A DNA stretch of 64,000 bases from an uncultured Pseudomonadota bacterium (lineage in GTDB: Bacteria > Pseudomonadota > Alphaproteobacteria > RF32 > CAG-239): contig CACWSG010000004.1 in assembly GCA_902763535.1 (NCBI GenBank), positions 7,568-71,567 on the forward strand. Direction: 5' to 3'. How positions within the stretch are numbered: the first letter of the stretch is position 1; each line of letters opens with the position of its first letter. The position numbers and the translations under genes were made by a program. The notes under the pieces are model-generated. The model saw only the letters and a program-made list of their open reading frames with translations. It did not search any database and had not been told where the DNA came from. Positions 13,511 through 17,232 of this stretch are shown here, piece by piece.

Positions 13511-13963
13511 ATGAAAAAAGAGCTTTTATCGCTTGGTGCATTGTCAATGTTGCTGACAGCTTGCGCTCCCAACATCAATTCTAATCACTATGCCACATCG
13601 GGTACCGGTGCGGTCGGTCAGGCCATGGGGTGCACTGTTGTTAGTGTCCGTCAGGTTAATGTTTCGTCATCCGATTCGTCTGCCGGTGCAGTTTTGGGAG
13701 CTATCGGCGGTGGTGTTGCCGGATCAACCGTTGGTCGCGGCCGCGGTTCATTGTTAGGTGCTTTAGGCGGTGCTGCTCTGGGTGGTTTGGCTGGTAATTA
13801 TGCCCAAGAGGGTTTGTCTTCGCAAAGTGGTGTTGAATATATCGTAAAACTTGACAATGGCAATTTGCGCACCATCACTCAAGGTACAGATGTGTATATG
13901 CAGCCCGGTCAAAGGTGCTATTTGCTTTACGGCGACCAGTCGCGTGTAATTCCTGCCAACTAG
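13511..13963 (+). CDS. Glycine-zipper outer-membrane lipoprotein (SlyB/17-kDa antigen-like)
   Basis: Lipobox LLTAC. Glycine zipper GAVLGAIGGGVAGSTVGRGRGSLLGALGGAALGGLAG. Confidence 0.65.
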   Translation: MKKELLSLGALSMLLTACAPNINSNHYATSGTGAVGQAMGCTVVSVRQVNVSSSDSSAGAVLGAIGGGVAGSTVGRGRGSLLGALGGAALGGLAGNYAQEGLSSQSGVEYIVKLDNGNLRTITQGTDVYMQPGQRCYLLYGDQSRVIPAN

Positions 13964-13984
13964 TAGAATTTCATCAAAACAACC

Positions 13985-14820
13985 GAGAAACCTAAAATTC
14001 TCGGTTGTTTTTTTATATATCCCCCTCGGACACTTTTTTATTGTCATCCTTGGGGACGCGTTTTTTTTATATGTCATCCTTGGGGACGCGTCAGCGTAAC
14101 CCGAGGATCCAAGCAAATTAGATTCAGAATAGATTCTCGGGTCATACACTCAGTGTATCGCCCGAGAATGACTTTTGGACACTTTTGGTCACTCAAAAGT
14201 GTCAATAATATAAAAAAATTCGAAGATGCCTAATTCGCTCATTTCACTCGCTCAGGCATGACAAAAAACTGTCACCCCTGAAGCCCCTCTACTGTCACCC
14301 TCGGACTTGGAGTCGATAGTTGGCGAGAACAAGGCGCTAGCCGCAGTTCAAGGCTTACGAGACGAAAGGGGCCCAGCTTCGTTGGGAATATCCATCCGAG
14401 GGTCAAACAAATTATCTTCGATTCTCGGGTCAAGCCCGAGAATGACATAAAAGAAAATAAGCCCAAGAATGACAGAAGAAAAATATCGCCCGAGAATGAC
14501 TTTTTATATAGGGTTTGGGATTGCGAGACAAGCGGAATAAGCAAACAGCGAAAAGGCTGGCAAAGATTTGCTTTATGCGGCTTTTGTCGGGCGCGTAAGT
14601 CGCCTGTAAATAAGCCGCAGCCTTATGCCTTTGAGCTGTTTGCCCGCTTGGCGAACAGCCCAATGACTTTTGGACACTTTTGGTCACTCAAAAGTGTCAA
14701 TAATATAATAAAATCGGAAGATGCCTAATTCGCTCATTTCACTCGCTCAGGCATGACAAAACCGGTAATGTCACCCCTGAGTGGTTTGCCAAAACCACGA
14801 ATTAGGGGTCTTCGATGTTT
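13985..14820. repeat. Repeat-dense non-coding region made of several hairpin-repeat families
   Basis: gtcatccttggggacgcg appears twice. (c)ccgagaatgac/attctcggg inverted copies appear at least 5 times. A unit of about 115 nt (approx 14167-14281 and 14662-14780) contains gacacttttg-gtcact-caaaagtgtc and atgcct-aattcgctcatttcactcgctc-aggcat hairpins. Confidence 0.85.
14511..14663. mobile_element. MITE-like 153-nt self-complementary element, copy 1
   Basis: Matches 16653-16805 with 2 mismatches, same orientation. Imperfect terminal inverted repeats (ttgggattgcgagacaagcgg / ccgcttggcgaacagcccaa). Nested internal pairings gcaaacagc/gctgtttgc, aaggctg/cagcctt, tgcggctt/aagccgca. Confidence 0.7.
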
Positions 14821-16526
14821 TAGAACAATTTCAACACTGCATTATTGGATTGTGCCGCTAAGGCAAGAGCATTGACTGCTAATGAATTTCTAGTTTGCAA
14901 AGCAAGATAATTTGCTGACTCTTCATTCATATCCGCCAATACCAAATCATCAGCACCAGTCTGTAATACATCAACCAAACCATCAGTGAAATTCATGCGT
15001 GTTTCAATGATACTTAAATTGTTGCCCAACCTTGCAACCTCATCACGAATAGAAATCATTGCATTTTGAATTTCTTTGATGCTTGCGGCAATATCGCCTT
15101 TGGTCTGCCACTCGCGAGTTGTAATGCCCAATCCGCTCAAGCTCATATCTTTGCCGTTAATAGTATAACTATGCGTGCGGTCTTCATTAAACATTGTGGT
15201 CAACTTGCCGCCTTTGAGCAGGTTGACACCTTGATAACTACTGTCTGATATCATCTCATCAAAAGCACTCATCGCCGTCAAATATTGCTCCGCGCTTTGC
15301 GCTAAAACTTTTTCATCAGCTCGCGGTTCGGCAGTCGGATAAACAAATTGCTCATCTTCAGCCATTCTCTGCACATTCAAAAGGCTTTGAATATTTGATG
15401 CTTGTATATTTTGATTTATTAAACTGGCATCTTCCATCACTTCATAACTTCGCCCACCAACCGTAACATGTGCTCCTTTAGCATAATTAATAACAACCAT
15501 ATTGCTTTCATAGGCCCCTCTTATAGCATTACCCAAAACATCAGCCGAAGCAGCTATATTAACAGTTCCACCTTCACAACCCCACCACCCGTTATTAAAC
15601 ATTTTTCCTTCTATATTTAATACACCATTACTGCAACACAAAACCCCAAAACCTTGAGTTTTGCAGGTTAATTTAGCTCCACTTTTTATCATCATATTTG
15701 CATTGTTTCTAATACCGCGGTTTTGGTTGTCTCCCATAGTTTTAAGATTAACATTTCCTTCAATGGATAAATTCCCCAGATTATAAACAGTGTATGACCA
15801 ATTTGAGCGAATTGGATTGTCTTGATTTATTTCTACATTCTTGATAGTCATCGTTCCATTGTTGCGCAAACAACTATTTGCTGATGAATTAGTGGTAGCA
15901 AAATTGATACTCAAATCCGATATCAAATTGTTTGCCGTGGTATTATTAGCTAACATAATAATGTTACGAGTGCAAGAGGCACTTATCGATGAGAATTTAT
16001 CTATCTCGCTGTCAAAATCGCCAAAATATCCGACACCGACCAGTTTTTGGTTATCATTTAAGGTTAAACCGGAAGTTATTTCGCCCATATCGATATGCCC
16101 ATAAACACAAATGGTTTCCTTGTTAGCATTGACCGCATCTTTGAGCTCTTGTGCTGTTGATACAACCGCGCCATTAGGGCCGACTTGAGCTTCAAACCAA
16201 GCCTTTTCCGGTATGATTGCTGCCTCGTATGCTTCTTTGGCAATCACCGCGGCATTTTCCAATATCTCGCCGCTGGCTTCTAAGCCTTTTACCGCCGTGG
16301 TAATAGTCTGGATACTTTGCCCCATGCTATCAAGGAGCATATCAAGGTCGCTTGCTCGGTTGGTCAAAGCTCGGCTTTGATAATAAGAGTTGGCATTATC
16401 AATCGCTGAGTTCACTTTTTTGCCGGTAGAAAGTCGTGTCTGGGTGGTGGACATCTGACTTGCCAACGACTTCAAGGAACTCAAGTTGCTGCGCATACTG
16501 GAGGTCAAAGTTATGTTAACAGACAT
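14820..16526 (-). CDS. Flagellin-family protein with beta-helix-like central insert
   Basis: True start is ATG 16526 (MSVNITLTSSMRSNLSSLKSL..), preceded by AAGGAGGGGG. The track ORF to 16808 is read-through of the repeat. Flagellin N- and C-terminal helices are present (..NFTDGLVDVLQTGADDLVLADMNEESANYLALQTRNSLAVNALALA). The centre has N.G.l.I-type repeats. Confidence 0.8.
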   Translation of the reverse strand: MSVNITLTSSMRSNLSSLKSLASQMSTTQTRLSTGKKVNSAIDNANSYYQSRALTNRASDLDMLLDSMGQSIQTITTAVKGLEASGEILENAAVIAKEAYEAAIIPEKAWFEAQVGPNGAVVSTAQELKDAVNANKETICVYGHIDMGEITSGLTLNDNQKLVGVGYFGDFDSEIDKFSSISASCTRNIIMLANNTTANNLISDLSINFATTNSSANSCLRNNGTMTIKNVEINQDNPIRSNWSYTVYNLGNLSIEGNVNLKTMGDNQNRGIRNNANMMIKSGAKLTCKTQGFGVLCCSNGVLNIEGKMFNNGWWGCEGGTVNIAASADVLGNAIRGAYESNMVVINYAKGAHVTVGGRSYEVMEDASLINQNIQASNIQSLLNVQRMAEDEQFVYPTAEPRADEKVLAQSAEQYLTAMSAFDEMISDSSYQGVNLLKGGKLTTMFNEDRTHSYTINGKDMSLSGLGITTREWQTKGDIAASIKEIQNAMISIRDEVARLGNNLSIIETRMNFTDGLVDVLQTGADDLVLADMNEESANYLALQTRNSLAVNALALAAQSNNAVLKLF

Positions 16527-16652
16527 AACCCCCTCCTTTTTATTATAACTAATTCGTAGACCCCTAATTCGCTCCTTACAGTCGCTCAGGGGTGACAGGT
16601 GGTGAAATAGACCCCTAATCTTGCTCAAGGGGTGACAGTTTAAAGATTCATC

Positions 16653-16805
16653 GGGTTTGGGATTGCGAGACAAGCGGAATAAGCAAACAGCGAAAAGGCT
16701 GGCAAAGATTTGCTTTGTGCGGCTTTTGTCGGGCGCGTAAGTCGCCTGTAAATAAGCCGCAGCCTTATGCCTTTGAGCTGTTTGCCCGCTTGGCGAACAT
16801 CCCAA
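16653..16805. mobile_element. MITE-like 153-nt element, copy 2 (in the 5' leader of the flagellin-like gene)
   Basis: See copy 1. Followed by the 12-bp perfect hairpin gttacttttggg-tg-cccaaaagtaac. Confidence 0.7.
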
Positions 16806-16894
16806 CACTTTTTGGTTACTTTTGGGTGCCCAAAAGTAACATAAACCGCTTGCAATTACATTGATTAACTGATTGATTTTATTAGATATTCCAT

Positions 16895-16902
16895 GGGGGG
16901 GG
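16895..16902. repeat. G8 (C8 on the coding strand) homopolymer upstream of flagellin-like gene 2
   Basis: Visible run. Minus strand reads TTGAGT-gtta-C8-atggaa-TATCTA (18-nt spacer). Confidence 0.9.
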
Positions 16903-17194
16903 TAACACTCAAACGGGTGGATTTTTGTGCTACTCGGGCGGACACACCAAAACCCATCGTATAATCATACGATGAGCGCTTTCGTCCCATAATTGTCCAC
17001 CCTAAAACCAACATTCTTGTCAGTCCTTCTTTTACTATAAGTTTCGCACGATACTACAATAATTATACCACATTTTTAAGCCCTATTCAACCCTAAAAAG
17101 CGATTCGTTTTTCAACGAGTTAGCTCAAGTCTGACTCGATTTTATTAAGATTCTCTGAACGTTTTCGATTCGAATTTTTTTTATTTTTTTTTCA

Positions 17195-17232
17195 TAAAAA
17201 AAGGAGCTTTAATTTCTCAAAGCTCCTTTTTT
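17195..17232 (-). terminator. Intrinsic terminator ending the AKR-flavodoxin-larBCE-transporter operon
   Basis: 9-bp stem aggagcttt/aaagctcct flanked by A-run and T-run, 3 nt after the stop of the 17235-17897 gene. Confidence 0.7.

Follow-up and report, generated by a model that had tools for sequence, protein, structure and literature searches.

A probable new family of long palindromic intergenic repeats around a flagellin gene of uncultured rumen alphaproteobacteria

Several kinds of palindromic repeat are known from the intergenic DNA of bacteria. The ERIC/IRU (RU-1) elements of enterobacteria are imperfect palindromes of 124-127 bp in transcribed intergenic regions (PMC3184786; PMC2759123), and the BIMEs and REPs of E. 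coli and the REPINs of Pseudomonas consist of short palindromic units in mosaic arrangement, which RAYT (Y1) transposases mobilise (PMC3116915, PMC3733652). Loci for surface antigens may themselves be excisable: the wzy locus of Salmonella Typhimurium is excisable and has perfect direct repeats at its flanks (PMC12074656), and the flnA flagellin region of E. coli is excised by an integrase (PMC3378880). Here we analyse a 153-nucleotide (nt) element, named E, that stands in two direct copies around flagellin gene 2 in a 64,000-nt stretch of DNA (the window) from an uncultured rumen alphaproteobacterium. The window corresponds to C4:7568-71567 of the genome G000, which comprises 1.52 Mb in 14 contigs with 39-40% GC. 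Our analysis indicates that E probably represents a new family of long palindromic intergenic repeats of the ERIC/IRU-like kind, which lies in BIME-like mosaics remodelled by recombination without a dedicated transposase. The family is small and previously undescribed, and it belongs to a subclade of uncultured rumen alphaproteobacteria.

The two copies, E_A (14511-14663) and E_B (16653-16805), lie on the plus strand in the same orientation and differ over their 153 nt at two positions only (A/G at position 65 and G/T at position 148), an identity of 98.7%. Flagellin gene 2 (14820-16526, minus strand) encodes a protein of 568 amino acids (aa) with the Pfam domains Flagellin_N and Flagellin_C, whose N- and C-terminal helical regions are conserved and whose large middle part is divergent. 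E_A occupies the convergent spacer downstream of the flagellin stop codon and is absent in some strains of the same species, and E_B sits between a promoter/leader module and the flagellin start, antisense to the gene. The GC content is 52.3% in each copy, versus 39.5% for the window and 36-45% in the spacers on either side, and the terminal 16-mer of E occurs twice in the window where 0.04 occurrences are expected. The alignment thus bears out the initial annotation, which had described two direct copies with two differences, one on each side of a flagellin-like gene and richer in GC than their AT-rich surroundings. The similarity reaches past the copies themselves by about 30 nt on the 3' side (14508-14695 versus 16650-16837, 93%), because a second short hairpin module, named H, comes after each E copy. 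The position of E_B is also occupied in the closest species, G016 (= RUG14511), by the 3' 51 nt of E only, and in a rumen contig from JGI.

The terminal inverted repeats and nested helices that had been listed for the element are real, and all of them are parts of one long imperfect hairpin. Its minimum free energy (MFE) is -69.8 kcal/mol on the plus strand (z = -4.95) and -60.2 kcal/mol on the minus strand (z = -4.38), and none of 200 shuffles of E folded as well. The 5' terminal repeat GGGTTTGGGATTGCGAG pairs with the 3' terminal repeat GGCGAACATCCCAA, and the terminal helix they form is paired in 98% of cells and covaries between subfamilies. Ten close E copies share 42 predicted pairs, 9 of which carry compensatory double changes. 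A covariance model built from these ten copies for genome searches recovered diverged subfamilies, namely E2 (in G000, G016 and G077) and a distinct type in G012, which have the same architecture with a different sequence, the terminal helix changing from TTGGGA/TCCCAA to TCGGGC/GCCCGA. When 18 copies were aligned with MAFFT without regard to structure, 93.4% of cells were paired, compared with 78% after shuffling of the partners and 33-46% after sliding the partners by 1-3 columns. Double changes affected 13 of 25 pairs in this alignment, and the observed covariation score was reached by none of 500 shuffles. Covariation among copies, proposed as a check in the initial annotation, is therefore strong in both sets. 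The E hairpin is under constraint, and it is the pairing rather than the sequence that is conserved.

The two strands differ in how well they fold. Across all subfamilies, 19 of 20 copies fold more stably as E(+) than as E(-), with a mean difference of 7.0 kcal/mol, and the score of the covariance model is 187 bits for the plus strand against 26 bits for the minus strand. More G-U pairs are held by E(+), on which changes affecting one side only remain G-U pairs. These observations are suggestive of a constraint specific to one strand, E(+), rather than conclusive, because the copies are related by descent; with copies so few and related, the covariation and strand-bias statistics make them look more independent than they are.

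The element is multicopy and dispersed in this genome, which carries 8-9 copies together with fragments at the ends of contigs C7, C5 and C8, so that several contigs break inside the repeat. Six copies are full (C4:22078, which is copy A; C4:24220, which is copy B; C13:20292; C2:108143; C4:147841; and C8:262) and two are internally deleted (C4:170786 and C4:172236). The copy on C13 is 96.7% identical to A and B, the others 82-92%, and internal deletions of an arm are present in the copies designated C4d, C4e and G16_b. Searches with the covariance model found E in only 5 of the 56 genomes of the genus (G000, G016, G013, G012 and G077), with 3-9 copies each. Being both multicopy and covarying, E is therefore neither a sequence unique to this locus nor one that lacks a conserved structure. 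Rfam contained no match to E, and a scan of the window between 13500 and 17500 at E <= 1 gave only a chance match to STnc240 outside the element; no match was found in plasmid and phage collections either. Thirteen exact 16-mer matches in IMG/VR were discarded as chance matches, since none of them is E according to the covariance model.

A general tie of E to flagellin genes was considered and rejected, as no copy in G013 lies within 1.5 kb of a flagellin gene and one copy in G016 is not near a flagellin either. Furthermore, a second direct bracket exists in this genome, in which the copies at C4:170786 and C4:172236 (to 172390) flank tRNA-Ser(TGA), tRNA-Thr(TGT) and a gene of 125 aa. Most of the hairpin's 3' arm is gone from both of these copies, with slightly different endpoints of the loss. 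Flagellin genes are therefore not alone in being bracketed.

In these properties E resembles the ERIC/IRU elements in kind, though not as a homologous family: it is an imperfect palindrome over its whole length in the range of about 120-170 nt, intergenic and multicopy, with compensatory changes. The likeness extends to the size class, the single long imperfect hairpin formed by the whole element, the intergenic and non-coding placement at low to moderate copy number, the occurrence in either orientation relative to genes, the lack of a known dedicated transposase and a presence that varies between strains and species. The differences are that no sequence relationship was seen, that the hosts of E are rumen alphaproteobacteria, that the copy number of E is much lower, and that a second hairpin module invariably comes after E, which lies within mosaics that include other units. 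To our knowledge, a strand asymmetry of folding has not been described for ERIC.

The strand asymmetry and the covariation would also fit a family of independent small RNA genes, each copy being transcribed from E(+), and E has no coding potential. The copies, however, come with no conserved promoter or terminator, their left flanks are made of different modules, Rfam offers no match, and truncated and internally deleted copies are common, all of which makes this explanation scarcely credible.

More can be said about an RNA role for E from the sequence upstream of E_B. A promoter/leader module of about 270 nt (16930-17200, minus strand) is conserved upstream of flagellin genes and comprises a promoter with an extended -10 element (TTGAAT-N17-TGgTATAAT, 17090-17062), a conserved Shine-Dalgarno sequence with a short open reading frame (ORF) starting MLVxGWT.MG, and an invariant terminator-like hairpin (16977-16952, CATCGTATGATTATACGATG followed by a T-run). 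The module has no Rfam match. It is also found upstream of flagellins on contig C5 of this genome, at two loci in G016, in RUG10672 and on the JGI rumen contig; the copies besides that of the window are located at C5:26159-26429 and C4:148182-148443 of G000 and on contigs L042, L044, L043 and L128, the one at C4:148182 having no flagellin downstream. In the RUG10672 copy (L043, CACWKS010000003.1), the middle of the module is a masked stretch, read as a run of N, that starts directly after ...TATGGGAAC. The module could act as a leader peptide/attenuator or as a small RNA, and its promoter probably drives transcription of the flagellin through H_B and E_B. Copy B would then be transcribed within the 5' untranslated region (UTR) of the flagellin mRNA.

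The order leader, H, E, a further small module S and flagellin is kept in three lineages, represented by the window, G016 (with a truncated E) and the JGI contig. The remnant of E in G016 abuts the ribosome-binding site of the flagellin gene, which leaves the leader promoter upstream of the remnant as the sole plausible candidate and thus implies transcription through it. Together with the strong covariation and the one-sided changes that stay G-U on one strand, as is typical of selection at the RNA level, this arrangement argues for a cis-acting RNA structure in the UTRs, a hairpin that would change how stable an mRNA is or how it is processed (acting, for instance, as a substrate of RNase III or as a 3' stabiliser) and whose pairing would be kept by selection. 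A structured RNA in the leader and trailer had been put forward in the initial annotation. The structure stands, but its placement fits the proposal poorly. The better-folding strand of E is antisense to the flagellin in all three lineages, and the flagellin mRNA would carry the weaker-folding strand in every case of the order leader, H, E and flagellin. The orientation of E relative to neighbouring genes is inconsistent, and strains of the same species can do without copy A. At the position of E, moreover, one paralogous flagellin leader of G016 carries E2, and the paralogue on C5 carries neither E nor E2. We therefore regard a cis-acting RNA as a rather unlikely explanation.

The flanks of the copies provide little sign of transposition. 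When the flanks of all E copies were aligned, no target-site duplication was found at any of them; the left flanks are ends of other modules and differ from copy to copy, and the right flank is always H. Self-BLAST of the genome revealed no repeat longer than 0.8 kb and therefore no multicopy insertion sequence (IS). RAYT/Y1 transposases (PF01797) gave no matches in G000, G016, G013, G012 and G077, and are present in 11 other genomes of the genus. No additional tyrosine recombinase tracks with E, and G013 and G077 have only two, which correspond to the XerC/D complement. Precise pairs of filled and empty sites were not found either, the polymorphic sites being replacements of several modules or of whole spacers.

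These results bear on the label of MITE-like (MITEs being miniature inverted-repeat transposable elements), which the initial annotation had given to E and which would imply a non-autonomous transposon moved in trans by a transposase recognising its terminal inverted repeats. The label holds for the shape, as E is small, non-coding and multicopy in intergenic DNA and has terminal inverted repeats. Isolated 5' termini of E of 17-21 nt are present at several junctions, and one boundary of the flagellin block common to the window and G016 coincides with the outer end of copy A. On the other side, the target-site duplication, the multicopy IS, the Y1 transposase and the clean insertion paired with an empty site are all missing, the polymorphic sites being module replacements; the pairing constraint extends over the whole length and not the termini alone; and the copy number is very low. 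A true MITE thus appears improbable. The comparison with Correia/NEMIS of Neisseria and other bacterial MITEs leads to a similar picture. E shares with them the terminal inverted repeats, the size of 100-160 bp, the insertion beside genes and the possible inclusion in mRNAs (PMC3184786), and differs in lacking a TA or other target duplication and a multicopy IS with matching ends, and in being paired over its whole length rather than at the ends only.

The sequences next to E are repeats in their own right. The H hairpin sits a few bases 3' of every full E and of E2 and also occurs alone. Its consensus is ACTTTTGG..CAAAAGT, and its stem covaries among copies (GACAC/GTGTC, GTTAC/GTAAC and GCTAC/GTGGC). 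In the window, H_A (GACACTTTTG..CAAAAGTGTC) lies at 14673-14698 and H_B (GTTACTTTTGGG..CCCAAAAGTAAC), which follows E_B, at 16815-16840, both on the plus strand. The S module is a small palindromic unit (GAAGATGCCTAATTCG..CTCAGGCATGACA, 14712-14758, plus strand) with the pattern GAAGAyssCCTAATTCG-variable hairpin-CTCAGGssTGACA. It occurs in both orientations; further copies are found at 14217-14263, 16551-16597 and 16610-16637, and one at 14770-14817 is in the opposite orientation. A third unit, T, reads CCCGAGAATGAC. A 100-nt direct repeat made of H and an S module (14167-14266, plus strand) has a second copy, 97% identical and 495 nt away, at 14662-14761, and this pair brackets E_A. A unique GC-rich segment of 134 nt (14287-14420, MFE -44 kcal/mol) lies within GTCACCCTCGG...CCGAGGGTCA arms; it has the same design as S and T, an outer stem plus a variable insert, and is present only in strains that also carry copy A.

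Across this genome, the modules E, H, S and T cluster at roughly 15-18 intergenic sites, 18 being the number counted. Such mosaics recall BIMEs and REPINs in combining several motif types, in being strictly intergenic and variable between strains, and in having S arrays that are tandem and alternating with a period of about 110 nt. They differ in that E measures 153 nt versus 20-40 nt for the palindromic units, in that E-bearing genomes have no RAYT, in that no GTAG or CGTC head was noted, and in that copies number tens rather than hundreds.

Comparison with G016, whose nucleotide identity in the flanking genes is about 90%, revealed how the flagellin block varies between sister species. The window locus is collinear in G016 as far as 13965 and then from 17227 onwards, and the whole 3.26-kb block between these points (13966-17226: mosaic, E_A, flagellin, E_B, H_B and leader) is replaced by a 50-nt bidirectional terminator, an empty site that carries no E. 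G016 has a flagellin of its own between a ymdB-like gene and rpoZ, with a full E on one side and, on the other, the 3' 51 nt of E with H, followed by the same leader. In the genome studied here, no flagellin stands in the ymdB-rpoZ interval, which contains the leader, one E copy with H, and an S module. Presence and absence of the flagellin block are thus reciprocal at two loci in the two species. The part common to both cassettes extends from the outer end of copy A (window 14509) to the upstream end of the leader (about 17202). The endpoints of the deletion at ymdB-rpoZ lie outside E and agree better with S-module recombination or with illegitimate events than with a simple E-by-E crossover.

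At two other sites we looked for a clean empty site or a target duplication in G016 and found neither. The C13 copy does have an empty site in G016, but as a replacement, with 45 nt there versus 733 nt here. The locus of the C2 copy (C2:107928-108300 of G000; L004:1273-1642) is rearranged: the copy is truncated at its 5' end and meets native sequence, downstream of tRNA-Arg(CCG), at a microhomology of ACAAGCG, and the junction is accompanied by a duplication of about 165 nt of the spacer after this tRNA gene. In its place, G016 has a gene of 340 aa (L126:824-2256; ORF MAILERLKKMQNDSGKN...) that is preceded by GGGTTTGGGAT and absent from this genome, and E2 with H occurs further along at the equivalent locus. 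Elsewhere in the region that matches the window in G016 (L047, G016:C2:112000-124000), collinearity jumps from about 18880 to about 24320, so that around 5.4 kb including larC and its neighbours is apparently absent or moved, and a 220-aa gene looks frameshifted, being matched by two high-scoring segment pairs.

Strain comparison, based on contigs that encode exactly the same neighbouring proteins as the window, revealed variation within the species as well. In L062, L064, L065 and L073, the flanks are 97-99% identical to the window, and 102 nt of other modules take the place of 432 nt including copy A. The 5' UTR of the flagellin is longer by one 81-nt S module in L059 and L072, at window position 16539 between TTATAATAAAA and the ribosome-binding site, and on contig C5 the same module lies upstream of the paralogous flagellin. 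Downstream of era, next to an identical Era protein, the spacer contains a full E2 in L119, a 30-nt stub of E2 followed by E in L113 and in this genome, and an S array in L112. This array (L112:4940-5990) has eight tandem S units in alternating orientation with a period of about 110 nt and a terminator at its end, and resembles a BIME-2-type array. In L063 (= L130; ENA ERZ1038122 scaffold_48375), an E copy links the Gly-zipper gene of the window (13511-13963) to the genes on the right of the C13 copy. Such repeats are places where metagenome contigs break and may be misjoined, and this junction reflects either a large rearrangement in a different strain or a chimera assembled across the repeat.

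Excision or duplication of the flagellin cassette between the direct copies, another proposal of the initial annotation, receives indirect support from these comparisons, as the block is reciprocally present and absent and copy A is missing in some strains. On the other hand, the breakpoints are not simple E-by-E crossovers, and none of the strain contigs spanning the window locus has the flagellin deleted or provides a junction for deletion of the interval. E is recombinogenic, and its role in moving a cassette is plausible but unproven. The resemblance to wzy and flnA is likewise partial: direct repeats border a gene for a surface structure, or an excisable segment carries it, and some lineages have the gene where close relatives lack it, but neither an excision product or circle nor a dedicated integrase was found for the E locus, and the E repeats are a dispersed family rather than locus-specific attachment (att) sites.

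By analogy with integron attC sites and XerCD-dependent dif modules, E with H might form an att-like site of a cassette-shuffling system, in which cassettes such as promoter plus flagellin would be cut out and re-inserted by way of the single strand of folded E(+). Catalysis would fall to a recombinase specific for a site or a structure or, in a version without an integrase, to a host function such as XerCD or a structure-specific nuclease or recombinase. Direct E copies do bracket flagellin in two species at different loci, the partner locus keeping one E; E termini or fragments lie at other junctions of gene presence and absence, such as that of the 340-aa gene of G016; and the strand-specific fold resembles the substrates of single-strand recombination. 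The breakpoints, however, fall at no fixed position in E, the empty window site of G016 is without any E, the second E pair surrounds two tRNA genes and a small gene with no obvious cassette, and the copies in G013 are not near flagellins. Integron core sites are absent, and G013 and G077 have XerC/D-type recombinases only. On balance, such a system seems highly improbable. An assignment of E to integron attC itself was also considered and rejected. The core sites of attC read RYYYAAC ... GTTRRRY and come with a neighbouring IntI integrase and a cassette array; the ends of E, GTTTGGGA...TCCCAA, show the opposite arrangement by eye, and its copies are dispersed, not arrayed.

The explanation we favour, that of ERIC/IRU-like repeats in recombining mosaics, would account for these data as follows. 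The mosaics would be remodelled fast, strains gaining, losing, truncating and exchanging modules through recombination of homologous, microhomology-mediated and palindrome-stimulated kinds, and the spread of E would be due not to a transposase but to recombination or to template switching at hairpins. Copy B would belong to a conserved unit of promoter/leader, H, E, S and flagellin, and copy A to a variable mosaic downstream, so that the bracket would result from two independent placements and not from a dedicated device. Modules present at many sites provide portable homology, and palindromic modules are fragile. Portable homology and fragility together are the most likely reason why the flagellin block differs in presence and location between the sister species, the cassette having presumably been relocated through its repeats.

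Several points weigh against this explanation. The strong strand-specific pairing over diverged subfamilies exceeds what a purely selfish or neutral repeat needs, and may reflect a function as RNA or as single-stranded DNA. This is the feature that our preferred model explains least, and simple 'junk repeat' models do not account for it. The negative search for an enzyme partner covered Y1 transposases, tyrosine recombinases and multicopy IS, and a single-copy DDE or serine transposase may have escaped it. No excision junction or circle was seen in the strain contigs spanning the locus, and the junction in L063/L130 would lose its value if it were a chimera. Finally, gain and loss are unpolarised at both flagellin loci, because the next relatives have about 70% protein identity and are not syntenic.

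The practical consequence is that these repeats break metagenome assemblies, several contigs ending inside them, and may create chimeric joins. If cassette shuffling did operate, streamlined rumen bacteria could swap surface-antigen genes between loci and strains. More broadly, E and its companion modules constitute a set of new, lineage-restricted long-hairpin intergenic repeats in small genomes without obvious transposases. Their mosaics are the fast-changing parts of otherwise syntenic genomes, and they coincide with the gain, loss and relocation of a cassette that encodes flagellin, a surface antigen and possible phage receptor.

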